Of a stretch of 64,000 bases of DNA, positions 1-12,802 are shown one piece after another (position 1 is the stretch's first letter; each line of letters opens with the position of its first letter). This DNA comes from Desulfuromonadales bacterium (GTDB taxonomy: Bacteria > Desulfobacterota > Desulfuromonadia > Desulfuromonadales > JACZKF01), in NCBI GenBank assembly GCA_029289095.1, contig JARFUG010000003.1:25479-89478 (forward strand), given 5' to 3'. A model generated the notes under the pieces. That model made no database searches and was not told where the DNA came from. It saw nothing but the letters and a program-made list of their open reading frames with translations. The position numbers and the translations under genes are program-made.

Positions 1-509
1 ACATCGACAGCCCCAACGCAGCGCTCCACGGCTACACCGACCCGCGCATCGATCAAGGCATCGCGGGAATGGTCGACATCGATCCCGAAAATGTCGGCAA
101 GGCTTTTTTCGTCCCCAAGCTCTGCAACCAGTGTCTGACCCCCCCCTGCACCCAGGTCTGCCCGGTGGGCGCCACCTACAAGACGGACGACGGCGTCGTT
201 CTCGTCGACAAGAAGTGGTGCATCGGGTGCGGCTACTGTGTCATGGCCTGCCCTTATGCCGCGCGCTTTTTTCATCCCGTCACCCATGTGCCCGACAAGT
301 GCACCTTCTGCTATCATCGCATCCACCAGGGGCTCGAGACCGCCTGCGTCAACGCCTGCCCCTTCGAAGCCCGCAAGCTGTGCAACATTCGCGACGTCAA
401 CGATCCAGTGACCCGGATCATCATGACGGACCGCGTCGGTATTCTCAAGGATGAGTTCGGGACCAGACCCCAGGCCTTCTATATCGGTCTTGCCACGGAG
501 GTGCGTTGA
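1..509 (+). CDS. 4Fe-4S dicluster subunit of a membrane oxidoreductase (NrfC/PsrB/HybA-like); 5' end cut by window edge
   Basis: Frame 3 is open from nt 3. Ferredoxin-type Cys clusters are present (CNQCLTPPCTQVCP, CIGCGYCVMACP, CTFCYHR..CVNACP). The stop overlaps the start of the NrfD-like gene. Confidence 0.8.
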   Translation, partial: IDSPNAALHGYTDPRIDQGIAGMVDIDPENVGKAFFVPKLCNQCLTPPCTQVCPVGATYKTDDGVVLVDKKWCIGCGYCVMACPYAARFFHPVTHVPDKCTFCYHRIHQGLETACVNACPFEARKLCNIRDVNDPVTRIIMTDRVGILKDEFGTRPQAFYIGLATEVR

Positions 510-1846
510 AAATGATGGACATGGCATATACTGTTCACGGTGAAGCCTGGACTCTCAAAGAGCTGTTCGTTCTGCCGAACGAATACGTCTACTGGTCGAT
601 CCAGATCGTCATGTACCCCTTCATGACGGGGCTCGTCGCGGGGGCCTTCGTCCTCTCCTCGCTCTATCACGTCTTCGGCATCAAACGGCTCAAGGAAATC
701 GCTCGCTTCTCTCTCGTCTTCTCCCTGGCCTTGCTCCCGGTGGCGATGATGCCGTTATTGCTTCATCTTTCGCAGCCACTTCGCGGCTTTCACGTCATGA
801 TGACGCCGCACTTCACCTCCGCGATCGCCGCCTTCGGCATCGTCTTTCTGACCTACGGCTCCATCGTCGTCAGCGAACTATGGTTCGTCTACCGCAAGCA
901 CTTCGTCCTCACAGTGATGGAGTTGAAGGCAAAACGCGACCGCACCTCCCTCGAAAACCTGCGCCTGAACTTCAACAAGATCCTCACCCTCGGCGCCATG
1001 GACATCAGCGAGGAGGCCCTTGAAAAAGACCACAAGGCAACTAAGTACCTGGCGGCCATCGGGATTCCCGTCGCGTGCTTCCTGCACGGCTACGCAGGAT
1101 TCATCTTCGGTTCGGTCAAGGCCAACGCTCTGTGGATGACTCCCCTGATGCCGGTCATCTTCATCATGTCCGCCGTCGTCTCGGGGATCGCCCTGTGTAT
1201 CCTGTGCTATGTGGTGACACAGGAGATCCGCAAGTTCATGGCCAAACGCAAAATGTCGCGTTGGGGGAAGGACCCCAAGGCCCCGAGCCTCGAGCAGCTT
1301 CAAGGAGCCGAGCAGGGGGGGGTTGCGATCGCCTCCAACTACCTTCTCTACTTCATGATCGGCGCCGTCACGCTGGAGGTCCTCGACATCATTTTCCGCG
1401 GTTACACGCAGGTGAAATCCTGGGACATCCTGGGTACTGTCATCATGGAGCGCAAGTTCGTCTCTCTCTGGATCATGCAGTTCGGCATCGGCAACATCCT
1501 CCCCTTCATCATGATGGTCATGCCGGGGCGCACGGTGAGAAGGACCGTCATCGCCTGCATCCTGGTCCTCTTCGGCGTCTTCATGATGCGCTGGAACATC
1601 GTCATCGGCGGACAGGCCTTCTCCTTGAGTTTCGCCGGTTTCATGCACTATCAGCTTCCGATCATTCCGCAAGACTGGGAGACCTTCAGGGAAGGGCTCT
1701 TCGGCGCTCTGCTGGTCGCGATCACCCCCTTCGTCCTCTTCTGGGGGATCAACAAGGTCATGCCAGTCTTTCTCGATGACAAGGGAATCCCTTCATCGGT
1801 CGGGAGCGTACCCAACGGCGCGAAGGCCAGTCCCGCCGTCGATTGA
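506..1846 (+). CDS. NrfD/PsrC-family polytopic membrane quinone-interacting subunit
   Basis: 446-aa ORF with many hydrophobic helices, translationally coupled to the FeS subunit. The N-terminus (YWSIQIVMYPFMTGLVAG) is typical of NrfD-like proteins. The ATG at 512 is a possible alternative start. Confidence 0.8.
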   Translation: MKMMDMAYTVHGEAWTLKELFVLPNEYVYWSIQIVMYPFMTGLVAGAFVLSSLYHVFGIKRLKEIARFSLVFSLALLPVAMMPLLLHLSQPLRGFHVMMTPHFTSAIAAFGIVFLTYGSIVVSELWFVYRKHFVLTVMELKAKRDRTSLENLRLNFNKILTLGAMDISEEALEKDHKATKYLAAIGIPVACFLHGYAGFIFGSVKANALWMTPLMPVIFIMSAVVSGIALCILCYVVTQEIRKFMAKRKMSRWGKDPKAPSLEQLQGAEQGGVAIASNYLLYFMIGAVTLEVLDIIFRGYTQVKSWDILGTVIMERKFVSLWIMQFGIGNILPFIMMVMPGRTVRRTVIACILVLFGVFMMRWNIVIGGQAFSLSFAGFMHYQLPIIPQDWETFREGLFGALLVAITPFVLFWGINKVMPVFLDDKGIPSSVGSVPNGAKASPAVD

Positions 1847-1902
1847 GGCCGAAAGGTCCGCAGGGCTGCTTGAGGCTGACGCCCTGCGCTCAGAATGAAA
1901 AG

Positions 1903-1950
1903 AACCCGGGAAGAAGCGACGACAATCGGCGCTTCCCCCGGGTTCAGTTT
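1903..1950 (+). terminator. possible intrinsic terminator after the NrfD-like gene
   Basis: Imperfect GC-rich stem (aacccggg..aagcg / cgctt..cccgggtt) followed by a T-rich stretch (cagtttattt). Confidence 0.35.
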
Positions 1951-2103
1951 ATTTAGGACAGCATTCCCCCACAACCTACTGCCAACTATCATTTCCGTTT
2001 TTGTTATCTTCCCTGGATTTCAGCTTTCGCTTAAACAAAAGATCCAGGTTGCATTTATCTCGCGTTTTCGATATCCTCCCGTCGTTTTAATACCCCTTCC
2101 AGA

Positions 2104-3303
2104 ATGAGTCTTCTCCAATCACCCTTCAACGCTAAAGGTAGGACAATGTCTCTTTCAACTCTCTGGGCCTGGTGCAAAAGACACCTTCTACTGGTAACGT
2201 TTCTCTCCATCGGCCTCATTTTTGTCTTCGCGGTCATCAACGTTCAGATTCTGCACATGACCTCAGAGCCTGAGTTCTGCGCCATGTGCCACCCCAACCA
2301 GGGGTACGGCCCGCTGGCCGAAGTCGATTCCTGGGCGCACTCGACCCATGCCGCCGCAGGCGTCTCTTGCCTGGACTGCCATGGCCGTCCCGGTCTGGCC
2401 GGCTACATGAGAGCCAAGATTGGCGGGCTCTACGATGTCTATATGCAGTTCACCCTTTCGGCTGAAGAGAAACTTGCCATTCTGTCCAATCCGTCGCCCG
2501 ACCTCGTTCCGGAAGACCACTGTCTCTACTGTCATTCCGATGAGCAGAACCTGGCGACCCGGCAGGCCACCCGCTTCATCGACCTCGTCAACATGCGCAT
2601 GCTCGACAGCGTGCAGAACCCCGAGTTCCGGGAGCGCAAAGGGATTCCTGATATTCTGGCCGGCCCCACCCGGGAGAACTCGCGCTTCGATCACACATTC
2701 CATATGGACACTTTCGAACTTTCGTGCAACGACTGTCACTTCGGTGTCGTGCACAACCCCCAGAGCAAAACCGACCTCATGAACATGTGCATCGCCTGTC
2801 ATGATGCATACGAAGGCTCGTCTGCTCCGCTTCTGAACGATTGCACCTCGTGCCATTCGGTCCAGAACTCGATGTACCTGGGCCAGGGCGCCCGCGGGGT
2901 TCCCGAGGAAGAGGGACTCAAGTCGATGTTCGGCATAAGCTGCGACATGTGTCACTCTTCGGTGTTCAAGGGCGTCTACCGTCCTTCGGCCGGCACCTGC
3001 ACCGATTGCCACGACTCGGGTTACAACGAAATTCTCGAGATGTGGCAGCAGGACACCCGAGAGCAGATCGCCAAACTTGACCGCCTTCGTCTTACCGTCG
3101 AAGACGCCCTGCGTGATGGTGATGCCCGCAACCGCGACAACACTGCTCGCTGGGAACTCTTCCAGAAGGCCGTCTACAATCTGAAACTGGTGAAGAAAGA
3201 TGGCGCGAAGGGAGCCCACAACGCCGACTACGCTTTGTCCATCCTTTCCTCGGTCGAGAAGGACTTCAACTTCATCCTCAACGACATCAGAATCAACTGG
3301 TAA
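2104..3303 (+). CDS. membrane-anchored octaheme c-type cytochrome (NapC/NirT-like N-terminus)
   Basis: Eight CXXCH motifs (CAMCH, CLDCH, CLYCH, CNDCH, CIACH, CTSCH, CDMCH, CTDCH) and one N-terminal TM helix. The alternative start at 2146 has the better SD. Confidence 0.8.
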   Translation: MSLLQSPFNAKGRTMSLSTLWAWCKRHLLLVTFLSIGLIFVFAVINVQILHMTSEPEFCAMCHPNQGYGPLAEVDSWAHSTHAAAGVSCLDCHGRPGLAGYMRAKIGGLYDVYMQFTLSAEEKLAILSNPSPDLVPEDHCLYCHSDEQNLATRQATRFIDLVNMRMLDSVQNPEFRERKGIPDILAGPTRENSRFDHTFHMDTFELSCNDCHFGVVHNPQSKTDLMNMCIACHDAYEGSSAPLLNDCTSCHSVQNSMYLGQGARGVPEEEGLKSMFGISCDMCHSSVFKGVYRPSAGTCTDCHDSGYNEILEMWQQDTREQIAKLDRLRLTVEDALRDGDARNRDNTARWELFQKAVYNLKLVKKDGAKGAHNADYALSILSSVEKDFNFILNDIRINW

Positions 3304-3327
3304 CCGGATCGCACAAAAGCCGAAAAA

Positions 3328-3356
3328 GGCGCCCTCTCGAGGGCGCCTTTTGTTTT
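3328..3356. terminator. bidirectional intrinsic terminator between the cytochrome gene and the convergent peptide array
   Basis: ggcgccc-tctcga-gggcgcc hairpin flanked by an A-run (3323-3327) and a T-run (ttttgtttt). Confidence 0.6.
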
Positions 3357-3402
3357 GTGGCAGGAAACTCCGCAACGATGGCTCTTTGGGACCGCAACCG
3401 GC

Positions 3403-3546
3403 TCAGCCGACCCGGGAAGCCAGGAAGGCCAGCGCCGGGTAGGAGATCAGCACTGCCGTGCACACCGAAATGACCCCGGTCACGACCAGCACGCCTGCGA
3501 GATAACCTGCTTTCACTTTTTCACGAATCGCAACGACGTTTCCCAT
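3403..3546 (-). CDS. small hydrophobic peptide, 47 aa, copy 1 of 5: MGNVVAIREKVKAGYLAGVLVVTGVISVCTAVLISYPALAFLASRVG
   Basis: Hand translation of the minus strand. ATG at 3546 is preceded by GGAGGAGATC; stop is at 3405-3403. Paralogous to four other mini-ORFs in the window. Confidence 0.7.
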   Translation of the reverse strand: MGNVVAIREKVKAGYLAGVLVVTGVISVCTAVLISYPALAFLASRVG

Positions 3547-3618
3547 GATCTCCTCCGTTATCTAGTAAAGCCGGATCGCTCCGGATCGCCTTTTGACTTA
3601 GTCTCGTGTCCCGCGCTC

Positions 3619-3762
3619 TCAGCCGACCCGCGAAGCCAGGAAGGCCAGAGCCGGGTAGGAGATCAGCACCGCCGTGAACACCGAAATGACTCCGGTGACG
3701 ACCAGTACGCCTGCGAGATAACCTGCTTTCACCTTTTCACGAATGCTGACGACGTTTTCCAT
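3619..3762 (-). CDS. small hydrophobic peptide, 47 aa, copy 2: MENVVSIREKVKAGYLAGVLVVTGVISVFTAVLISYPALAFLASRVG
   Basis: Hand translation; SD GGAGGAGATC precedes the ATG. The gene lies exactly 216 bp from copy 1. Most nucleotide differences from copy 1 are synonymous. Confidence 0.7.
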   Translation of the reverse strand: MENVVSIREKVKAGYLAGVLVVTGVISVFTAVLISYPALAFLASRVG

Positions 3763-3834
3763 GATCTCCTCCGTTATCTGTAAAGCCGGATCGCTCCGGA
3801 TCGTCTTTTTGACTTTGCCTCGAACCCCGCGCCC

Positions 3835-3981
3835 TCAGCCGACCCTGGAAGCCAGGAACGCCAGCGCCGGGTAGGAGATCAGCACCGCCGTGAACACCGA
3901 AATGACTCCGGTGACGACCAGCAATGCAGCCAGATATCCTGATTTCGCCTTTTGACCGATTTTCCCGATAGTTGTTTCCAT
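3835..3981 (-). CDS. small hydrophobic peptide, 48 aa, copy 3: METTIGKIGQKAKSGYLAALLVVTGVISVFTAVLISYPALAFLASRVG
   Basis: This is the C-terminal part of track ORF 3835..4092. The internal ATG at 3981 is preceded by AAGGAGGAAATC. It is the first gene downstream of the sigma-54 promoter. Confidence 0.7.
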   Translation of the reverse strand: METTIGKIGQKAKSGYLAALLVVTGVISVFTAVLISYPALAFLASRVG

Positions 3982-4074
3982 GATTTCCTCCTTTGACTTG
4001 GCGCCTCCGCGGAAGGCGACTTTCTGATATTTTTTCGGTCGACTCTGGCGACCGTGCTTACTTGCCTTACTAAA

Positions 4075-4092
4075 TAGCAACCGCCGTGCCAA
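4075..4092 (-). promoter_or_regulatory. sigma-54 (-24/-12) promoter of the three-peptide array
   Basis: Minus strand reads TTGGCACGGCGGTTGCTA, matching the TGGCAC-N5-TTGCW consensus with correct spacing. It lies about 95 nt upstream of the copy-3 ATG. Confidence 0.8.
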
Positions 4093-4162
4093 TATGATTT
4101 TTCATGCCAAAACGAATACTTACGGCCTACTCACATCCTGGAGAGGCGATTCCAACTAAAAG

Positions 4163-4489
4163 TGTTCAATTCCCGGCATGAAGAAATTCAAGAAAATAAC
4201 CTGCCCTCTGCGACAATCCTTCTCACACCAGAGATGATGTCGTGCTGTCCGCCCCCGAATATGCACTTATCTGGCGTTGCAATGACCTTTTGACTGAGAT
4301 GTCGGCAGAGGCGATGACGTTGCAGGAGGGAATAAGCCCGTTTGGGATGTGTTCAGAATACGGCATGTGGAAAGTGGGACGCCAGATGGTGTTCACTCTA
4401 CTTGCTTGAAATACTGTCGTTTTCTCTTGTTCAAAATCCGACGTGGTGCGCTTGTTTCTTTTTATGGCAACTGTTGCGCACGTTGCAAT
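4163..4489 (-). promoter_or_regulatory. upstream activating region: three 16-mers of form TGTTCA-N-CCGRCR (TGT-N10-RCR) plus GTTGCA motifs and a GCAACTGTTGCGCACGTTGCAAT element
   Basis: 16-mers at 4163-4178, 4350-4365 and 4428-4443; CGTTGCA at 4275, 4318 and 4481. The same motifs occur at the same distances upstream of the second sigma-54 promoter (10073-10401). Confidence 0.55.
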
Positions 4490-4711
4490 TAATGCACTGG
4501 GACTCTCCTCCCAGCTCAGAGGAAAACCGGACGGTCGTTCCCCTGCCTCGCCCCGATGGCGCTCCTGTAAATTGCCATCCACTCTCCCTTGAATTCCTCA
4601 CTTCGCGGCAGCAATAAACCCCGGGAGAATGCATCCGTTCCGTCGGCGCGTTCTCCCGGGGTTTTGATAAAGCCACACCCGAATCCCCTCAAATGAGGGG
4701 ATTCGACTTTT

Positions 4712-4987
4712 TCAGGATCGGGCTGTAACGCCCGCCTTCCTGCGCGCTCTGACCATGTGAATTCCGTGGCGATTGCGGAAAATGCGCATCACCATAACGC
4801 CCATGATAGAGAGAAAGAAACCGATGCAAAGAACAACATATCCGATGCTCCTCCCATCTCCCAGCCCAGCGACGTCTTTTCCTGAGAGAAGGGCGATCAT
4901 CGCAATGGCGCCGAAGGTCACCACGCCCCCGAGCACGTAAATGCCGAGAGCCGAAATCCCCAAGAACATATCCTTATCTATTTTCAT
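4712..4987 (-). CDS. small membrane protein (two or three predicted TM helices), function unknown
   Basis: 91-aa ORF with SD GGAGA 7 nt upstream. It sits directly downstream of the CbcL-like gene on the same strand. The hairpin gaatcccctc-aaat-gaggggattc (4681-4704) follows it. Confidence 0.55.
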   Translation of the reverse strand: MKIDKDMFLGISALGIYVLGGVVTFGAIAMIALLSGKDVAGLGDGRSIGYVVLCIGFFLSIMGVMVMRIFRNRHGIHMVRARRKAGVTARS

Positions 4988-5045
4988 CGTTGTGTCTCCG
5001 CAGACTAAGGTGAGGGGGGAGCCCCGTGAGGCTCCCCCTTCTGAA

Positions 5046-7028
5046 TCAGCCTTTGACGAAAGCGTAGAGCATCAAAAACGCCAGCGTCACGCCGGTGAAG
5101 AAAGCCAGGAAGCCGAAGCCCTTGAAGAAAAAGTCATAGAGAACCCCGCTCGTTTTCTTGGCTTCGAACTGCTCCAGGATCCCGAGCTCCTCGTAGCGCT
5201 TCCACTGGTCTCCGCGCTCATGGATGAACTCTTCCTTGGAAATCTGGCCGTTGAAGATGACAAAGTCCATCGGGAACTTCTCGGGCCGACCGTGGGTGTT
5301 GAAGAAGTGGACAGTAAAGATGAATCCGGTGGCGAGCAGCGCCTCGTCCGAATGGACGATGGTGGCGACGTTGAACATCCACCCGGGCAGGAAGAGGGCG
5401 AAGAATTCAGGGAACCAAAGGAGCAGACCGGAGCCGCCGATGGCGAACATCCCCCAGAAGACCGCCAGGAAGTCGAACTTCTCCCAGTAGGTCCAGCGCT
5501 CGAAGGTCGGTTTGGGCCCCTTGAAGAAGAACCACTTCACCATGCCGGTGACGTCCTTTACGTCGCGGGTGTTGGGGAGCAGCGAATCTGGACCGAAAAG
5601 ACGCTGCAGCCAGTGGGCCTTTGTCCCGTTGCGATTATAGACGTCCTTGCGGATGAACAGGAAGTCGAAGCTCATGATGAGAGCGCCGAGGAAGTAGTAG
5701 AAGGTCAGGATGGCGCAGCCGCGATGGATGAGACCGGCCAGGTGCACCCCGCCAAAGAAGTTCATCATGTTCACCGCCCAGGCCTGATCGGCGAACTTGA
5801 GCGGAAGCCCGGTCAGCGAAAGGCCGAGGAAGCTGATGATGACGACGAGGTGGAGATAGATGTGGCGTTTCTCAAACCGCAGATATTGCTTCTGAGGATC
5901 GGAGATGGCGTGGGCATGACTCCCTGCGGCTGCGCCTCCGTGCATCCTCTCTCCGGCCGAGACCGTCACGGCGACCGATGCCGACATGCCGTCGGCGACC
6001 GCCTCCGCTTCCTCGGTGTCCGAATCGTGCGCTCCCGAATGGGCATGGGAGCCCATGGCGGCTTGCTTCTCGCGGTTCTCGACGAAGCCGCGGAACATCC
6101 ACAGCAGGGTGTGGACCCAGAAAACGGCAAACGTCACCACCAGCAGAGAGGTCATGCTGATGTAAGTCCAATACAGGATCGGAAACTTGGCGCGGTCGTG
6201 ATGATCGCCGTGGGGGTGAAAGAGCACGAAGAGCGAATTCGCATTGGGATGGCACTGGGCGCAGGTCGCCACGAGATTGTCGGGATTGATGCTCGACATG
6301 GCGTGGTCACGCGGCAGCACGCTGTGGGCGGTGTGGCAGTCGGAGCATCCGGCCGTATCTTCCGGGAAACCGAGGCGGTAACCTTTGCCGTGATAATTGT
6401 CGAGGTACGTCTTGACGGTGAGCGCCGAAAGCCCCGCACGGCTCATCATCTCCTCATCGCCGTGGCAGGTCATGCAGGCGCTGGTGTGGAAAGCCATCTT
6501 CTGCCGATCGTCTCCCAGGGGATTGATCTGATGCAGACCGTGACAGTCGTGACAGGCCGCCGAATCGGGGTTGCCGTCGAGCACAGAGCGTCCGTGAATC
6601 GACTCGAGATATTCGGGGTGGTCGTGGCAGCCGAGGCACGAGTCGACAGCCACTTCCTTTTTACCCCCCCAGGACTTCAGGGCATGAATGTCGTAATGGC
6701 AGTCTTTGCAGCCTATGCCGCTGAGCATATGGATACTGGATCCATGCTCGGCGGTCTGCTCCTTGTGGCAGCGGGTGCAGTTGACCGGCTCGACCCTTAC
6801 GATTCCGTCCATGTGTCCGTCGAGATCGGTGACCTGCGTGTGGCAGCTTGTGCACGAGTTGTGCCCGTGGACGGACATGCCGAAAGCGGATGCGTCAATA
6901 TCTCCCTGGTGGCAGTCCATGCAGCTTTCCGCGGCGGGCGGCAGAGCTGCGGGAGACGGTGATGGTGCAGCCAGAATCCAGCAGAACAGCAAAATCGGGA
7001 TCAGTCGATAGAACCTCATTGGCTTCAT
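5046..7028 (-). CDS. CbcL-like inner-membrane cytochrome: periplasmic nine-heme c domain fused to a HydC/FdnI-type b-cytochrome membrane domain
   Basis: Signal peptide, then nine CXXCH motifs in aa 36-260, then a polytopic membrane domain in the C-terminal roughly 370 aa. This architecture matches the published description of Geobacter CbcL. The ATG at 7019 has better SD spacing. Confidence 0.75.
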   Translation of the reverse strand: MKPMRFYRLIPILLFCWILAAPSPSPAALPPAAESCMDCHQGDIDASAFGMSVHGHNSCTSCHTQVTDLDGHMDGIVRVEPVNCTRCHKEQTAEHGSSIHMLSGIGCKDCHYDIHALKSWGGKKEVAVDSCLGCHDHPEYLESIHGRSVLDGNPDSAACHDCHGLHQINPLGDDRQKMAFHTSACMTCHGDEEMMSRAGLSALTVKTYLDNYHGKGYRLGFPEDTAGCSDCHTAHSVLPRDHAMSSINPDNLVATCAQCHPNANSLFVLFHPHGDHHDRAKFPILYWTYISMTSLLVVTFAVFWVHTLLWMFRGFVENREKQAAMGSHAHSGAHDSDTEEAEAVADGMSASVAVTVSAGERMHGGAAAGSHAHAISDPQKQYLRFEKRHIYLHLVVIISFLGLSLTGLPLKFADQAWAVNMMNFFGGVHLAGLIHRGCAILTFYYFLGALIMSFDFLFIRKDVYNRNGTKAHWLQRLFGPDSLLPNTRDVKDVTGMVKWFFFKGPKPTFERWTYWEKFDFLAVFWGMFAIGGSGLLLWFPEFFALFLPGWMFNVATIVHSDEALLATGFIFTVHFFNTHGRPEKFPMDFVIFNGQISKEEFIHERGDQWKRYEELGILEQFEAKKTSGVLYDFFFKGFGFLAFFTGVTLAFLMLYAFVKG

Positions 7029-7060
7029 CCTCCGGTAAGAGTTGATAAAATCGATCCGCC

Positions 7061-7726
7061 TCAGCTTCGCAACAAAATATCGAGTGCCTTCTTCTTTTCG
7101 GGGTTATTGAACCGGAACACCATCTCCTTCAAATAGAGGGGAAACTCATCTCGAAAACTCCCCCGGTAACGGCGCAGATGCCTGCGGGCGAACTCCCAGA
7201 ACTCCGCAGCGACGCGCAGTTCCCCTTCCGAACCGTGAGGGAGATGTTTCTGCAGAACTCGACTGAGAAAATTCTCCTTTGCTCCATATTGAGCGCCTAG
7301 CACCAGAGTCGAGCAGCACGCATGTGGAACGCCTGAGCCCCCCCTCTCGGGAAAGGCGACCCACACCGTTCGATCATTGACGCCGATCCCGCACAGGAGA
7401 TTCATCGGCTCCGACATCGGACAACCTTCACTTTGCACCTCCCTCAGATGCGTTGCGTTTTGGAGCCCATCATTTTCCAGGGCCATTTTGACTCTGAATT
7501 CCCTATAGATGCGCTGAACCGTCTTGCGGTTGATACCGGCGAGATCCGCTGCTCTGTATGCGGAACCGAGATCCCAGAATAGTTGGGCGACGGCTTCTCT
7601 GGTGGCTTCGGACAGCCTTCCCTGCCTCGGATGGGGTGTGAACTTCTGTCTGCACTTGCGACACTGGCGGCGGCCGTCCGCCAGCAGATAAGAATCTGCA
7701 TCACAGGCCGGGCATCGATCCATCAT
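7061..7726 (-). CDS. IS1595-family transposase-like protein (zinc ribbon + HTH + shortened DDE region), probably degenerate or domesticated
   Basis: N-terminal CPACDADSYLLADGRRQCRKCRQKF zinc ribbon and a C-terminal YLKEMVFRFNN motif typical of ISXO2/IS1595 transposases. At 221 aa it is short, and I found no flanking inverted repeats. Confidence 0.5.
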   Translation of the reverse strand: MMDRCPACDADSYLLADGRRQCRKCRQKFTPHPRQGRLSEATREAVAQLFWDLGSAYRAADLAGINRKTVQRIYREFRVKMALENDGLQNATHLREVQSEGCPMSEPMNLLCGIGVNDRTVWVAFPERGGSGVPHACCSTLVLGAQYGAKENFLSRVLQKHLPHGSEGELRVAAEFWEFARRHLRRYRGSFRDEFPLYLKEMVFRFNNPEKKKALDILLRS

Positions 7727-8011
7727 GTGGCGCCATCCTCCCGTTGGTCCTATTTAATGGCCTGATCGAAAATTCCACACAAAAAAAGGCCAAAGTTTTT
7801 TCCCTTTGTGCACTTTGACCGCCGGGGATTTCTCAGCCGCTAAATTATGCCGCTCCGTCTCGAGGGCAGAACCGGGGACAGGACATTAGATTACTTTTAT
7901 TTAACCCTGTCAACCTTTTCTCCTGCATAGAAAAACTCTCCTTTCCGTCTCAGTTCAGATGCCGGGCCAATCCCGGTCATCAGGGAAATATTCCGGAGGA
8001 TTGATCACTCC

Positions 8012-9406
8012 TCAGCACAGTTCGTGCCGCTTCATCCAACGCCACAAGGTTGTACGGTCTACACCGAGAATTCCCGCCACCTCAGTACGGTTTCCTCCGT
8101 GCCGATGGAGCAGTTCGTTGAGGTCCTGGGCAGAAACCGTTTTTCGCCTCGACCGTGAAAGGACGGGAGTTGGAACGCTCTTTGGCGACAACGTGGTGGG
8201 CAGATGCTCGATGTCAATTTCAGCGCCGCGACATAGAATGACCGTCTGCTCGATGATATTCAGCAGCTCCCGAACGTTTCCCGGGTATTCGTAATCGAGA
8301 AGGATCTGGAGCGCCTGAGCGGAGAGACCCCTGATATTTTTACCGTAGGCGCGGTTCAACCGATCGAGAAAGACCTCGATGAGCAGGGGGATGTCTTCCG
8401 GCCTCTGACGCAGGGGGGGGATCTGAAGAGCGACTACATTGATCCTGAAAAAAAGATCACGGCGGAAGGTTCCCGCATTCACCTTGGCCCTAAGGTCACA
8501 GTTGGTCGCAGCGACAAAGCGGACATTGGCCTTTTGCACCCTTTCTGCGCCGAGGGGCTGAAATTCCTGGTGCTCAATCACCCGCATCAGCTTGACTTGA
8601 AGGGATAATGGAAGCTCACCGACTTCGTCGAGGAAGAGGGTTCCCCCTTCGGCGAGTTCGATGCGTCCCTGGCGATCGGTCCGATTACCGTAACCTCCCT
8701 TGCGCGAGCCGAAAAATTCGACTTCGAGCAGATGCTCCGGGAGCTCTCCGCAATTCACGACGACCATCGGCCCGGCACTTCGCGAACTGAGCTCGTGAAT
8801 CGCCTTGACGATGAGCTCCTTGCCGGTGCCGCTCTCGCCGGAGACCAGAACCGTGGCATCGCTGCGAGCAACATCTGGCAGAGCGTCGAAGAGCCGATGC
8901 ATGGCGGGATTGCGGCTGACGAGATTTCGGAAGGTGTACTTCTCGGCGACCCGCACGGAGGCGGAGCACAGTTCGGAGCGATCACGGAACGCCTCGACGC
9001 CGCCGATGGGATGTCCTTGCAGGTCGCGCAGGACGGAAGCGCTCACCGAAACCGGTACTTTGCGGTTCTCCTTGTTGCGGATTTCGAACTCGCGGTTAAC
9101 GACCCCGATGTTTGTTTTTCTGGCTTCTCGCACTGGGCAGCTCTCTGAGCAGATATTGGAGCGGAAAATTTCATAACACGGCTTTCCGACCACCTCCGCC
9201 CTGGTAAATCCGGTGATCTCTTCGGCAGCGCGGTTGAACGACGTGATGCGCATGCGGTCATCGACGGTGAAAACGCCGTCTGCTACGCAGTTGAGAATGG
9301 CGCCGGTGAGAACGCTGGAGTTGCCGAACAGGTGGACAGCCGGGGCGCTCCTGCGTGAGATCTCCAAATTAGCTGAACTCTGGTACCTGCCTCGCTCGCT
9401 GCTCAT
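8012..9406 (-). CDS. PAS-domain sigma-54-type enhancer-binding protein (AAA+ domain + C-terminal Fis-type HTH) with a non-canonical GAFTGA loop
   Basis: Walker A GESGTGKE, GGTLFLDEVGEL, and the GNVRELLN motif are present. The C-terminal HTH reads RTEVAGILGVDRTTLWRWMKR. The PAS domain carries CYEIFRSNICSESC. The L1 loop reads KGGYGNR instead of KGAFTGA. Confidence 0.85.
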   Translation of the reverse strand: MSSERGRYQSSANLEISRRSAPAVHLFGNSSVLTGAILNCVADGVFTVDDRMRITSFNRAAEEITGFTRAEVVGKPCYEIFRSNICSESCPVREARKTNIGVVNREFEIRNKENRKVPVSVSASVLRDLQGHPIGGVEAFRDRSELCSASVRVAEKYTFRNLVSRNPAMHRLFDALPDVARSDATVLVSGESGTGKELIVKAIHELSSRSAGPMVVVNCGELPEHLLEVEFFGSRKGGYGNRTDRQGRIELAEGGTLFLDEVGELPLSLQVKLMRVIEHQEFQPLGAERVQKANVRFVAATNCDLRAKVNAGTFRRDLFFRINVVALQIPPLRQRPEDIPLLIEVFLDRLNRAYGKNIRGLSAQALQILLDYEYPGNVRELLNIIEQTVILCRGAEIDIEHLPTTLSPKSVPTPVLSRSRRKTVSAQDLNELLHRHGGNRTEVAGILGVDRTTLWRWMKRHELC

Positions 9407-9518
9407 CGGACACCTCTCGTCGGGGACGGACGCTAATGCTCCCCTAGGACACCCTCAACCCGGCACTCTGCACTTTCGCATCGGGGGATTTTTCGACTCC
9501 GATCTTCCTGGGACTGGC

Positions 9519-9665
9519 TCAGCCGACCTTGGCTGCGAAGAAAGCCAGGGCGGGGTAGGAGATCAGCACCGCCGTAACCCCGGACATGACGCCGGCCAGA
9601 ACCAGCACTGCGACCAGGAAACCTGCCTTCATTTTTTCGCGGAAGAAATTGCCGATGGTTTCCAT
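9519..9665 (-). CDS. small hydrophobic peptide, 48 aa, copy 4: METIGNFFREKMKAGFLVAVLVLAGVMSGVTAVLISYPALAFFAAKVG
   Basis: Hand translation; SD GGAGGAGAAT precedes the ATG at 9665. It lies 113 nt upstream of the bEBP gene on the same strand. Confidence 0.7.
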   Translation of the reverse strand: METIGNFFREKMKAGFLVAVLVLAGVMSGVTAVLISYPALAFFAAKVG

Positions 9666-9743
9666 ATTCTCCTCCACCTTCTCTTGCAGTACAGCACGAC
9701 CAATCCACTGATCCAGCCCGCCAGCAACCTTTCTCGTCAGCCC

Positions 9744-9890
9744 TCAGCCGACCCTGGAAGCCAGAAAAGCCAGCGCGGGGTAGGAAATCAGAACAGCCGT
9801 AACCACGGACATGACGCCGGTGACGACCAGCAATGCGACGAGATAGCCCGATTTCGCTTTTTGTCCAATTTTCTCGATGGTTGTTTCCAT
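9744..9890 (-). CDS. small hydrophobic peptide, 48 aa, copy 5: METTIEKIGQKAKSGYLVALLVVTGVMSVVTAVLISYPALAFLASRVG
   Basis: Hand translation; SD AAGGAGGAAAGTC precedes the ATG at 9890. It is the first gene after the second sigma-54 promoter. Confidence 0.7.
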   Translation of the reverse strand: METTIEKIGQKAKSGYLVALLVVTGVMSVVTAVLISYPALAFLASRVG

Positions 9891-9985
9891 GACTTTCCTC
9901 CTTTGACTTGGCGCCTCCGCGCGGGAGGCGTCTTCTTATAATCTTTCGGCCCTCTCAAGAGACCGTGCTTGCTTGCCTAACTTAA

Positions 9986-10003
9986 TAGCAACCGGCGTGC
10001 CAA
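9986..10003 (-). promoter_or_regulatory. sigma-54 (-24/-12) promoter of the two-peptide array (and possibly the downstream bEBP gene)
   Basis: Minus strand reads TTGGCACGCCGGTTGCTA. The downstream leader (aggcaag.aagcacggtc) is also shared with the 4075 promoter. Confidence 0.8.
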
Positions 10004-10072
10004 ATAAATAGTCACGCGCAAACAGCCACTTAGGTGGCTTGTCCGTCCCATGGAGTCGATTCCGGCGAAAAG

Positions 10073-10401
10073 TGTTCAATTCCCGACGGAAAAAAAAGAA
10101 ATCGAACGGCCGGACCTGCGGCAACCTTCCGCCCCGCAGCAGAGGTAAGGACGAACTGTCCGGCCGCGAACGCCCGTTGGTCGTGGCATGCATTGTTTTT
10201 CCCTGCGTGGGTGAAGAGGCGATTGACGTTGCACGGAGTGGATGCGTCCGCCTGAAATGTGTTCAGAATCCGGCAGGGCAAAATGGAGACGATCAACCAG
10301 AAAGATTACTATCTGATTGATTATTGGTTCTTTTCCCTTGTTCAATATCCGACGCATCGCGTTCTGTTTCCCTTCAGGGCAACTGTTGCGAGCGTTGCAA
10401 T
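10073..10401 (-). promoter_or_regulatory. upstream activating region paralogous to 4163-4489
   Basis: 16-mers at 10073-10088, 10260-10275 and 10339-10354; CGTTGCA at 10227 and 10393; GGCAACTGTTGCGAGCGTTGCAAT at 10378-10401. Distances to the -12 element match locus A within 1-2 bp. Confidence 0.55.
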
Positions 10402-10658
10402 CGAGTTACCAGACCTCAGGCTGTTGCACCTCGTCAGGGCATTCTGCAACAGACCAGATATCTGTCGCTGCCGATTCTCTTTGAAATTGCAGCAGTGAAT
10501 TCCACCTACGTCTTCTGTATCCTGATTCCGACTATTCGAGGCGTACACAAAAAGTGAAAAAATTTTTCCTTTTTTCCGGCTACTCCCTTTGGTATCATTA
10601 ATTTCTGTAACTCACTTAAAGCTGGGGCAATTTCACCCCCGTACGCAGGAGAGTTTCA

Positions 10659-11117
10659 ATGGCGGTTTCCAGCAGCGACCCCATCTTTCCCATCAGCGTG
10701 GCTGCAAAACTCCTCGGAGTTCATCCCCGGACGATCCGCATCTACGAAGACGAAGGCCTGATCAAACCTTCACGTCGAGGCCAGAAAAGATACTTTTCCC
10801 AGGACGACATCCAGTGGATTCAATGCATCAGATATCTCATCCATGAAGAGGGAGTCAGCATTCCCGGCATCAAGAAGCTCCTCAAGCTCAGCCCATGCTG
10901 GGAGATCAAGGTCTGTCCGCCAGAGATTCGCGAAAATTGTTCCGCTTATGTCGACAGAAGCGGGTCGTCACAAAAACCGTGCTGGGAAGTCGCGAATCGG
11001 GCCTGCGCCAAAGACTTCGATCAGTGCGCAACTTGCGATGTTTTCGTGCAGGCGATGAAGGAGAGTCAGTCGTTGCAGGAACGGAGAGAAAAAGAGCCGA
11101 AGATTGGCGCAGACTGA
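10659..11117 (+). CDS. MerR-family transcriptional regulator with C-terminal Cys-rich two-CW-type domain
   Basis: N-terminal MerR HTH (ISVAAKLLGVHPRTIRIYEDEGLIKPSRR). The C-terminus carries PCWEIKVC..C..PCWEVANRAC..CATC, i.e. 8 Cys and two CW dyads. Confidence 0.8.
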   Translation: MAVSSSDPIFPISVAAKLLGVHPRTIRIYEDEGLIKPSRRGQKRYFSQDDIQWIQCIRYLIHEEGVSIPGIKKLLKLSPCWEIKVCPPEIRENCSAYVDRSGSSQKPCWEVANRACAKDFDQCATCDVFVQAMKESQSLQERREKEPKIGAD

Positions 11118-11338
11118 AACTTCCGCTTTTCCTGAAAGGTTTCCTCCGCCGCCCTGGGAACTGCCCGGCCGGCCTCTTCTCAGCAGAGCCCGCCTTAAAT
11201 ATCCCCGGAGAATTAACGGGATTGAGCTTCCCTGGTGAAAACGCTTTTCTTATCTAGGTTTGATGTTGTATTTTCTGCGACTTCCGGTGCAACACTGCGG
11301 CCGGTTCCGTTGCACATTTTCAGCATGGAGGTACTCAA

Positions 11339-12802
11339 GTGAAGGAAGTCGCCAATATTATCAATGCATTCTTCAGAGGAATCACTCACAGCAAGGTCTC
11401 TCTGATCGGGGCGATGGTCGTCACAGTCGTCTTCCCCTTTCTCGTCGGCGCGATCATCTATGACATCTATTTTCACATCGAGAACACCTATTTCGCCGGC
11501 TTCATCTACATGCTTCTCGGCCCTGTGTTTCTCGGAGGACTTCTTCTTGTCTTTCTCGGCCTGTTCTTTTTCAAAGGCAAGGAGGAGGTCAGGCTTTTCA
11601 CCCTCGAATATCTCCAGGACTATTTCACCGATCCGACGAAGTTCTCCAGGCTCCGTCGGATCTTGTTCTTCACAGTCTTTCTCACTTGCGTCAACCTATT
11701 CATTTTCGGCGTCCTCGCCTACAGGGGATACCATTACATGGAGTCGACCGGATTTTGCGGCACTTTCTGCCATACGGTGATGAATCCCGAATACACCGCA
11801 TATCAGAATTCTCCGCACTCCAGGGTGACCTGTGTCGAATGCCACATCGGAGGAGGCGCCGAATGGTTCGTCAAGTCGAAGATCTCCGGAGCCCGCCAGC
11901 TTCTCGCCGTGGCCTTCGACACGCACCCGCGCCCCATAGAGACTCCCGTCCATGGTCTGCGTCCCGCCCGGGACACGTGTCAGCAGTGCCACCGTCCGGA
12001 GAAATTCCATGGAAACCGGCTCGTCATCAAGGAGAGATTTCTTCCGGATGAGCACAACACCAAAACCTTTACCGCCCTGCTGATGAAGATCGGTTCGGCA
12101 GGCGACCACACCACGGGATCTCATGGGATTCACTGGCATGTGGCGCCGGAAAACGAAATCACCTACCAGCACGCAGACTACGGCCGCCAAATTATCCCCA
12201 TCGTGACGATGACCGGAGCCAGCGGCGGAGAGCGTATCTTTCTGAGTTCTGACGCCGACGAAGTCATGGCCGAAGCTGCCGCACGCGGAGGCGGCGTTCG
12301 GGTGATGGACTGCATCGACTGCCACAACCGCCCCTCCCACATTTTCCTGTCGCCGGACCAGGCGATCGACCGCAAGATGCTGGAGGGGGAGATCCCCAAA
12401 GAACTTCCCTTCATCAAGCGCCAAGCCCTGGCGGCGGCAACCCAGCTCTACACCTCGAGTCAGCAGGCCCGCACCGCCATCGCCACGCAATTGCACGACT
12501 GGTACCAGACCAACTACCCGGACCTGGTCAAAAAAGGCTTGGTTGAAAAGGCGATCCGCGGGGTTCAGGCCGCCTATGCTGAAAACGTCTTCCCCGAGAT
12601 GAACATTCAGTGGAACACCTACGTCGACCACATCGCCCACACCCCTGATTTCGATCCGATGATCGGCTGCATCCGCTGCCACAACGATGAGCATGAAACC
12701 GTCACGGGGGAAGTCATTTCCATGGACTGCGATTTGTGCCACACGGTATTGGTCGAAAATGTCAAGGAGATGAACATTCCTGAAATGCTTCGTGGCAGGT
12801 AG
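11339..12802 (+). CDS. membrane-anchored multiheme c-type cytochrome, NapC/NirT-related (ImcH-like architecture)
   Basis: GTG start 8 nt after GGAGG. Three N-terminal TM helices. Five CXXCH motifs (CVECH, CQQCH, CIDCH, CIRCH, CDLCH) plus one CX3CH (CGTFCH). Confidence 0.8.
   Translation: MKEVANIINAFFRGITHSKVSLIGAMVVTVVFPFLVGAIIYDIYFHIENTYFAGFIYMLLGPVFLGGLLLVFLGLFFFKGKEEVRLFTLEYLQDYFTDPTKFSRLRRILFFTVFLTCVNLFIFGVLAYRGYHYMESTGFCGTFCHTVMNPEYTAYQNSPHSRVTCVECHIGGGAEWFVKSKISGARQLLAVAFDTHPRPIETPVHGLRPARDTCQQCHRPEKFHGNRLVIKERFLPDEHNTKTFTALLMKIGSAGDHTTGSHGIHWHVAPENEITYQHADYGRQIIPIVTMTGASGGERIFLSSDADEVMAEAAARGGGVRVMDCIDCHNRPSHIFLSPDQAIDRKMLEGEIPKELPFIKRQALAAATQLYTSSQQARTAIATQLHDWYQTNYPDLVKKGLVEKAIRGVQAAYAENVFPEMNIQWNTYVDHIAHTPDFDPMIGCIRCHNDEHETVTGEVISMDCDLCHTVLVENVKEMNIPEMLRGR

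Follow-up and report, generated by a model that had tools for sequence, protein, structure and literature searches.

An OrpR-like enhancer-binding protein with a degenerate sigma-54 contact loop, encoded beside consensus sigma-54 promoters in a Desulfuromonadales lineage

Can a bacterial enhancer-binding protein (bEBP) that has lost its GAFTGA loop still act on the sigma-54 promoters beside its own gene? Sigma-54 activators are recognized by their GAFTGA signature, which is held to be indispensable, and both annotation and regulon prediction judge PF00158 proteins by it. The question is raised by a 64,000-nt stretch of contig JARFUG010000003.1 (assembly GCA_029289095.1, Desulfuromonadales bacterium), referred to here as the window, in which a minus-strand open reading frame at 8012-9406 encodes a 464-aa bEBP (P0001) of PAS, AAA+ and Fis-type helix-turn-helix (HTH) architecture. 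Our preferred answer, to which we give about an even chance, is that P0001 no longer remodels sigma-54 but has been retained as a modulator that senses redox state and binds DNA, and that another activator fires the promoters. The features of the regulator gene, all on the minus strand, are as follows.

8012-9406, minus strand: gene of the OrpR-like enhancer-binding protein, 464 aa (open reading frame list; Pfam; exact database protein P0001; second assembly)
8972-9301, minus strand: PAS sensor domain, residues 36-145 (PF13426, 59 bits; AlphaFold2 predicted local distance difference test (pLDDT) about 80-89)
9137-9178, minus strand: C77-x-E79-x6-C86-x3-C90, putative [4Fe-4S] ligand triad of the OrpR type (sequence; relatives; OrpR match)
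8426-8920, minus strand: AAA+ sigma-54 interaction domain, residues 163-327 (PF00158, 200 bits; structure comparison)
8816-8839, minus strand: Walker A, GESGTGKE, residues 190-197, intact (sequence)
8681-8698, minus strand: degenerate tip of loop 1 (L1), G237-G-Y-G-N-R242 in place of GAYTGA/GAFTGA, one residue shorter (alignments)
8624-8647, minus strand: Walker B, GGTLFLDE, residues 254-261, intact (sequence)
8027-8116, minus strand: Fis-type HTH, residues 431-460 (PF02954 (HTH_8), 31.6 bits; alignment)

Pfam matched PAS_9 at residues 43-145, Sigma54_activat (PF00158) at 163-327 (E=2.6e-59) and AAA_lid_14. The arginine-finger region FRRDLFFRI and the motif GNVRELLN are both present, and in alignments of 68-120 relatives GESGTGKE, GGTLFLDE, FRRDLFFRI and GNVREL fall on invariant columns. 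The AlphaFold2 model (pLDDT 80) was superposed on solved structures, the closest being the AAA+ domains of ZraR, NtrC1 and FleQ (root-mean-square deviation 1.5-2 Å); it confirms the fold and is silent on function. P0001 has the AAA+ profile and fold, the ATPase motifs and the C-terminal HTH of PF00158 activators, and lacks the GAFTGA-type L1 (G-[AS]-[FY]-[TS]-x-x). A preliminary description of this DNA, made from the sequence alone, had named the same domains, Walker motifs, GNVRELLN and HTH, and was accurate in its account of the protein and of the promoters.

The loop stretch of P0001 reads FFGSRKGGYGNRTDRQGRIE, with ..FGSRKGGYGNR.. where bEBPs carry ..FGHEKGAFTGA... Compared ungapped with GAFTGA, five of the six positions differ, and in a HMMER alignment with the solved ZraR (FGHEKGAFTGADKRREGRF) a one-residue gap falls after the Tyr; the loop is indeed divergent and one residue short, as had been noticed at the outset. 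Against the family form GAYTGA, 3/6 conserved loop positions are changed, compared with 15/215 elsewhere in the protein (Fisher p=0.008). A frameshift or sequencing error as the cause of the loop, a possibility that the preliminary description had itself named, was rejected: GAFTGA was not restored in any of the three reading frames translated across the loop, and the gene is base-identical in a second assembly, GCA_030604755.1 (7193/7195 bases identical with flanks included).

To place the loop within its family, we aligned the 120 top-ranking cluster representatives (90% identity) obtained in searching 5.8 billion proteins; they come from Desulfuromonadales, Geobacterales and Desulfobulbales. 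In 117 of them the loop is GAYTGA, GAFTGA, GAYTGS, GAFTDA or, in one case, GAYIGA, and the 17 further metagenome relatives that cover the loop, obtained in a scan for the family HTH, all have GAYTGA or GAYTGS. The only deviants among the 120 are P0001 and two relatives with 73% (P0002) and 69% (P0003) identity to it. Their loops are GPYSGG in P0002 and GP-DGDG in P0003, so that the three differ from one another, indels included; in P0003 a TAC-to-GAC change has, in addition, removed the aromatic residue. It had been proposed that GGYGNR might be a tolerated new loop variant, to be checked by asking whether orthologs share it. The closest two do not, and a new conserved form of the loop is therefore not supported: the tip drifts among orthologs. 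The loop change is a relaxed constraint on the L1 tip, confined to one small Desulfuromonadales lineage.

In a neighbour-joining tree calculated with the loop columns removed, P0001, P0002 and P0003 form one clade on a long stem, sister to the group of canonical short-form proteins (433-464 aa), which suggests that constraint was relaxed once and that the loops diverged afterwards. Each of the three has 3-4 of the six loop positions changed, against 7-11% of the 215 other conserved positions (Fisher p=0.003-0.008). Of the 144 positions with at least 93% conservation among the remaining 117 sequences, only six differ in each of the three variants, and two of these six lie in L1, while the L2 region, arginine fingers, sensor II, Cys triad and HTH recognition helix are unchanged in the alignment. 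Within the variant clade (P0001 against P0002 and P0003) the ratio of nonsynonymous to synonymous substitution rates (dN/dS) is about 0.09-0.15; dN of the AAA+ domain is 0.15-0.18 with dS saturated, about 1.7-fold above pairs of canonical relatives (0.09-0.10). Metagenomes were scanned with a back-translated HTH pattern of the variant clade, EVAG[IV]LGVDRTTLWRWMK, which gave 0 matches, and with a broader HTH pattern, which gave 24 loci, canonical in the loop wherever that region was covered.

That P0001 is a functionless, decaying relic, or its loop an artefact of sequencing or assembly, is very improbable. Decay would fit the long branch of the clade and the absence from the locus of a target operon described below, but the open reading frames are full-length in three lineages with dN/dS about 0.1, 200 of the 215 conserved positions outside the loop are retained, and purifying selection on the rest of the gene excludes a pseudogene. 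An artefact is contradicted by the two identical assemblies and the three-frame translation, and P0003 is found in an independent Logan assembly as well.

The doubt about an activating role comes from the loop itself. By published mutagenesis, most GAFTGA substitutions abolish activation; in PspF, only the change of F to Y is tolerated, and the Thr is critical for contact with sigma-54 (PMC2941729). The loop of P0001 has no Thr, and that of P0003 neither Thr nor an aromatic residue. Since the loop drifts, changes length and loses residues that the published mutagenesis identifies as critical, activation of sigma-54 by P0001 is doubtful.

The sensor domain can be compared with a characterized protein. 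The PAS motif of P0001, CYEIFRSNICSESC, contains C77, E79, C86 and C90, and the Cys triad is kept in 119/120 relatives. The spacing equals that of C52, E54, C61 and C65 in OrpR (DVU2106) of Desulfovibrio vulgaris Hildenborough, where the three PAS cysteines are needed to sense redox state and the PAS domain carries a [4Fe-4S]2+ cluster that is redox-sensitive (PMC8359166). OrpR has the same order of PAS, AAA+ and Fis-type HTH and the same C-x-[DE]-x6-C-x3-C motif (PMC8359166, PMC3897727). P0001 would on this homology be an OrpR-like Fe-S redox sensor. The earlier suggestion that a C-X8-C-X3-C motif in the PAS domain points to redox or metal sensing is supported in its redox part by the same homology, but the motif is not new: it was already published for OrpR, and this part of the finding is known biology.

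The likeness to OrpR extends beyond the sensor. The canonical-loop relatives of P0001 (60-68% identity) adjoin an ORP (Nitro_FeMo-Co, PF02579) gene, one of the 120 relatives (P0089) bears the NCBI name OrpR, and the promoters at this locus are, like the OrpR targets, of sigma-54 type with upstream palindromes. An OrpR-specific NCBIfam model does not exist, and all equivalog matches of P0001 were far under cut-off. Unlike OrpR, P0001 has a degenerate L1, arrays of membrane peptides (47-48 aa) stand behind the promoters, multihaem cytochromes surround the locus, and the sites at this locus are of the GCAAC/GTTGC type. The palindrome of D. vulgaris Hildenborough OrpR, GGGCGYRTTTTGCGCCC, has no match in the window with up to 3 mismatches allowed, and therefore the DNA specificity of P0001 differs from that of Desulfovibrio OrpR.

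For the promoters and their upstream regions, the following elements were located.

9988-10002, minus strand: sigma-54 promoter P1, TGGCACGCCGGTTGC, 112 nt before the first peptide ATG
10073-10083, minus strand: promoter-proximal block GGAATTGAACA, a GGAWT(N)TGAACA copy, at -81 of P1
10260-10271, minus strand: further GGAWT(N)TGAACA copy upstream of P1
10379-10389, minus strand: palindrome GCAAC-A-GTTGC within ATTGCAACGCTCGCAACAGTTGCC, putative regulator site, 387 nt upstream of P1
4077-4091, minus strand: sigma-54 promoter P2, TGGCACGGCGGTTGC, 110 nt before the first peptide ATG
4163-4173, minus strand: promoter-proximal block, a GGAWT(N)TGAACA copy, at -82 of P2
4428-4439, minus strand: further GGAWT(N)TGAACA copy upstream of P2
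4467-4477, minus strand: palindrome GCAAC-A-GTTGC, putative regulator site, 386 nt upstream of P2

The exact pattern TGGCAC-N5-TTGC occurs at two sites in the window, both intergenic and on the strand of the downstream genes, against 0.12 expected by shuffling (3/100 shuffles reach two); calling these promoters perfect, as the preliminary description had done, was justified. About 600-680 bp upstream of three variant-type promoters from two genomes (P1, P2 and one at the P0003 ortholog locus, L001) were then compared. Invariant among them are the promoter block itself, TGGCACGSCSGTTGCTAT, TGCAAC at about -230, and a block CGCAACAGTTGC, which is the palindrome GCAAC-A-GTTGC, at -386 to -390. 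Within the 64 kb, the exact palindrome is confined to P1 and P2, and so is the -82 block. GGAWT(N)TGAACA, likewise among the invariant blocks, is present in three copies per variant-type promoter, at about -350, -270 and -82 (copies in L001 are at 3373 and 3562); in exact-pattern searches it was absent from the rest of the 64 kb and it was not found in canonical loci. These repeats may be sites of a different regulator. Two other assignments of the -82 block were rejected: as a relic of a TTGGAAT-type promoter, the TTGGAAT-like part being unconserved among the three promoters and the spacing unfit, and as a site for integration host factor, with just 6/9 consensus positions.

Canonical loci carry clusters of the same half-sites (TGTTGCA/TGCAACA, e.g. 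GTTGCATTGCAAC) between the regulator gene and the downstream promoter. Because its recognition helix, DRTTLWRWMK, is identical to that of its canonical relatives in the alignment, the variant protein probably still binds GCAAC/GTTGC sites. The promoters themselves differ. The promoter-like sites of the canonical short-form relatives read GGCAY-N5-TTGGAWT, with G replacing the usual C at -12, in five instances at L005 (8132, 1072), L006 (7643, 9072) and L088 (2481) and in 17 instances at 15 metagenome loci (L089-L112); the variant lineage has the consensus TTGCTAT at -12. Loop and -12 element have changed together, which, with two variant genomes only, may be covariation in cis and trans.

A further difference lies in what follows the regulator gene. 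At the canonical loci L005, L006 and L088 the operon directly after it encodes an ORP-type Nitro_FeMo-Co protein together with a protein of 113-119 aa and small peptides. Neither ORP nor the 113-119-aa partner was found in the 64-kb window or in 13.4 kb around the L001 ortholog, and the loci of both variant genomes lack the entire post-regulator block (cluster of upstream activating sequences, promoter, 113-119-aa gene, ORP, peptides). The locus has thus been rewired, with the canonical post-regulator block gone, another promoter type in use and GGAWT(N)TGAACA repeats added, and we count this in favour of a changed role for P0001.

The mechanism that we infer joins Fe-S binding, loss of sigma-54 activation, a modulator role and a second activator. 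In the PAS domain, a redox-sensitive [4Fe-4S] cluster is probably coordinated by C77, C86 and C90, E79 being close by. The L1 tip, which grips region I of sigma-54, was freed from constraint and is decaying in this one small Desulfuromonadales lineage, the same that lost the ORP operon directly downstream of the regulator; sigma-54 remodelling was possibly lost after that target had gone. P0001 would survive as a redox-sensing, ATP-dependent, DNA-binding protein under purifying selection, occupy GCAAC-A-GTTGC about 388 bp upstream of both peptide promoters, and modulate them, most likely negatively or architecturally, without firing them. Modulation by DNA binding has a precedent in D. vulgaris Hildenborough OrpR, which also represses its own sigma-70 promoter, independently of sigma-54, by binding DNA (PMC3897727). 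The TGGCAC-N5-TTGCTAT promoters would be opened by another bEBP, for which we see two candidates: a paralog of the OrpR family, encoded at an unlinked locus, whose recognition helix is the same, or an unrelated activator using the three GGAWT(N)TGAACA repeats. That the promoters use another activator and the protein has another role had been one of the two options of the preliminary description. The loop decay favours it without proving it, and family-type half-sites are still conserved upstream of both promoters.

Several observations weigh against loss of activation, and most of them speak at the same time for the main rival, which we hold to be less probable: that P1 and P2 continue to have P0001 as their cognate sigma-54 activator, the Tyr of its loop, flanked by glycines, sufficing to engage region I, perhaps aided by the consensus -12. 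P0001 is the sole bEBP within the window (tblastn); its gene lies directly behind P1 in the same orientation, and no terminator-like site was seen between the peptide gene at 9519-9665 and the regulator gene. A conserved family-type palindrome at a fixed distance from all three promoters is what one expects of a regulator that is still cognate. The ATPase catalytic motifs and L2 are conserved as in a working activator, the HTH is intact and the gene is under purifying selection. The presumptive targets belong to the peptide family that is also found in the downstream operon of canonical relatives, and loop and -12 element changed together. P0002, with GPYSGG, keeps Y and S/T-G and so comes near to variants considered functional in D. 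vulgaris, where substituted motifs stand naturally beside sigma-54 promoters and DVUA0100 (GVATGV, three substitutions) has, by prediction, stayed active (PMC4641369). A second activator was not found, the complete genomes lying outside the search, and among the GTDB matches listed for G[ED]SGTGKEL there were only distant bEBPs of at most 52% identity. The variant clade, moreover, consists of three known sequence clusters, which is a small sample.

What speaks against P0001 as a working activator is first that the loop is unconserved in three orthologs, with indels and, in P0003, no aromatic residue, although it is near-invariant in more than 130 relatives over much larger distances. A consensus -12 should raise, not lower, the dependence on a working L1. 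The mutagenesis, finally, requires Thr and Phe/Tyr (PMC2941729).

A more specific proposal is that this lineage activates sigma-54 without a GAFTGA-type loop, L1 having been relaxed jointly with the promoter switch from TTGGAAT to TTGCTAT; we regard it as unlikely. As an alternative, P0001 may be a natural L1-dead subunit whose role at sigma-54 enhancers is that of a redox-gated competitor or a poison subunit.

The remaining explanation concerns the promoter behind the regulator gene. On the minus strand, the locus runs from P1 through two peptide genes, the regulator, a sigma-70-type promoter, genes for proteins of 221, 660 and 91 aa, P2 and three peptide genes to a terminator. The elements beside those listed above are these.

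9744-9890, minus strand: single-transmembrane peptide gene, 48 aa, first behind P1
9519-9665, minus strand: paralogous peptide gene, 48 aa, behind P1
7885-7913, minus strand: sigma-70-type promoter TTGACA-17-TCTAAT between the regulator and 221-aa genes, kept in all three variant loci
7061-7726, minus strand: Zn-ribbon/HTH protein of 221 aa, carrying at its C-terminus an IS1595-transposase-like remnant; its gene is syntenic with the regulator family
5046-7028, minus strand: multihaem cytochrome c of 660 aa whose C-terminal half spans the membrane; conserved partner downstream
3403-3981, minus strand: three tandem paralogous peptide genes behind P2 (3835-3981, 3619-3762, 3403-3546)
3324-3351, no strand assigned: strong bidirectional terminator hairpin closing the P2 peptide operon

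P0001 might have switched to sigma-70 promoters, for example the TTGACA-17-TCTAAT of the 221-aa/cytochrome operon, the nearby sigma-54 promoters being unrelated to it. The loop decay would fit, the near-consensus sigma-70-type promoter directly downstream is strongly conserved in all three variant loci, and there are precedents in NtrC of R. capsulatus and Caulobacter, VpsR and TyrR. We consider this improbable, since GCAAC/GTTGC half-sites are absent near 7885-7913, the exact palindrome lies in the window upstream of P1 and P2 only, and in the known cases L1 is deleted, not scrambled.

The five window peptides are paralogous, 47-48 aa long, with one transmembrane helix and the C-terminal ISYPALAFLASRVG (consensus I[SA][YW]PALA[FY]LAS[RK]). 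No Pfam or NCBIfam family matched them; a profile search of 1.84 billion proteins found 26 representatives of the family, and the same family is present in the ORP operons of canonical relatives. The P0003 ortholog locus (L001, GCA_050485365.1) has the same gene set, with four peptide genes behind an exact sigma-54 promoter. In the window, both leaders contain a GC-rich hairpin (9910-9932 and 4002-4018) directly 5' of the Shine-Dalgarno sequence of the first peptide gene, and the CCUCC of its 5' arm could pair with the Shine-Dalgarno sequence instead; L001 has a hairpin of other sequence at the equivalent leader position. An Rfam scan of 3200-11200 gave nothing close to gathering score.

The 221-aa protein has a Zn ribbon at its N-terminus, an HTH and, at its C-terminus, what is left of an IS1595 transposase (NF033547, residues 176-208). 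Homologs of 174-261 aa are encoded in L001 (7663-8325), L005 (9862-10647), L088 (4678-5202) and L087 (1-653); the gene always adjoins an OrpR-like regulator and is always followed by that of a cytochrome of about 610-665 aa. The family has the look of a factor that derives from a transposase and was domesticated. In the 660-aa protein, the N-terminal part is a multihaem cytochrome c and the C-terminal half is hydrophobic and contains histidine; directly after its gene follows that of a conserved 91-aa membrane protein (4712-4987, minus strand). Genes for NrfD, 4Fe-4S and NapC/NirT-type cytochrome proteins flank the locus (69-3303, 11339-12802). The cytochrome and membrane genes suggest a membrane electron-transfer module that accompanies the regulator family. 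Divergent from P1 lies a gene for a MerR/HspR-like regulator (10659-11117, plus strand) with a Cys-rich C-terminus (weak match to a two-CW domain), and L005 has a homolog at the equivalent position relative to the peptide pair. In L087, from a Geobacter-like genome, two long-form (two-PAS) OrpR-like genes stand in tandem (2831-4513 and 5001-6719) behind the Zn-ribbon/cytochrome pair, the first preceded by a consensus-type sigma-54 promoter, TGGCATTCAATTTGCT, at 2639.

Proteins with comparable features fall into three kinds. R. capsulatus NtrC, Caulobacter NtrC, NtrX, V. cholerae VpsR and TyrR are, like P0001, PF00158 proteins without the sigma-54 contact motif; NtrC of both species, NtrX and VpsR act without sigma-54, and the group still binds DNA, some members also binding or hydrolysing ATP. 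These homologs have a deleted or shortened L1, a state fixed throughout the lineage, and their targets are sigma-70 promoters, whereas the loop of P0001 is nearly full-length, scrambled and different between close relatives, and P0001 has its own putative site motif upstream of textbook sigma-54 promoters. The bEBPs with substituted loops that are thought to be active (DVUA0100 with GVATGV; GAYTGS, GAFTDA, GAFSGA) deviate, like P0001, beside predicted sigma-54 promoters (PMC4641369), but their loops are of unchanged length and usually retain [FY]-[TS] or, failing that, the Thr, while the loop of P0001 has become one residue shorter and no longer has the Thr. In Myxococcus xanthus, the bEBP PexR, which has a metal-centre sensor, serves as an activator of sigma-54 promoters and, by binding DNA, as a repressor of a sigma-A promoter, and so provides a precedent for a non-activating output; unlike P0001, it has a GAF sensor instead of PAS and is described as activating sigma-54-dependent expression (PMC12754779).

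For the prediction of sigma-54 promoters in Desulfuromonadales, the TTGGAAT -12 element of the canonical short-form OrpR-like regulators (about 20 sites) is a caveat. P0001 appears to have been caught in mid-transition, with everything but the loop tip conserved and its site motif still upstream of perfect sigma-54 promoters, and the locus offers a natural test of whether the loop that contacts sigma-54 can be dispensed with. If P0001 is inactive on sigma-54, it shows the conversion of an activator into a sigma-54-independent or antagonistic regulator after its main target operon was lost. If it is active, the assumed sequence requirement of L1 is overturned; and should the lineage activate sigma-54 without a GAFTGA-type loop, the sequence of the contact loop would not be universally essential and would co-evolve with the -12 element.

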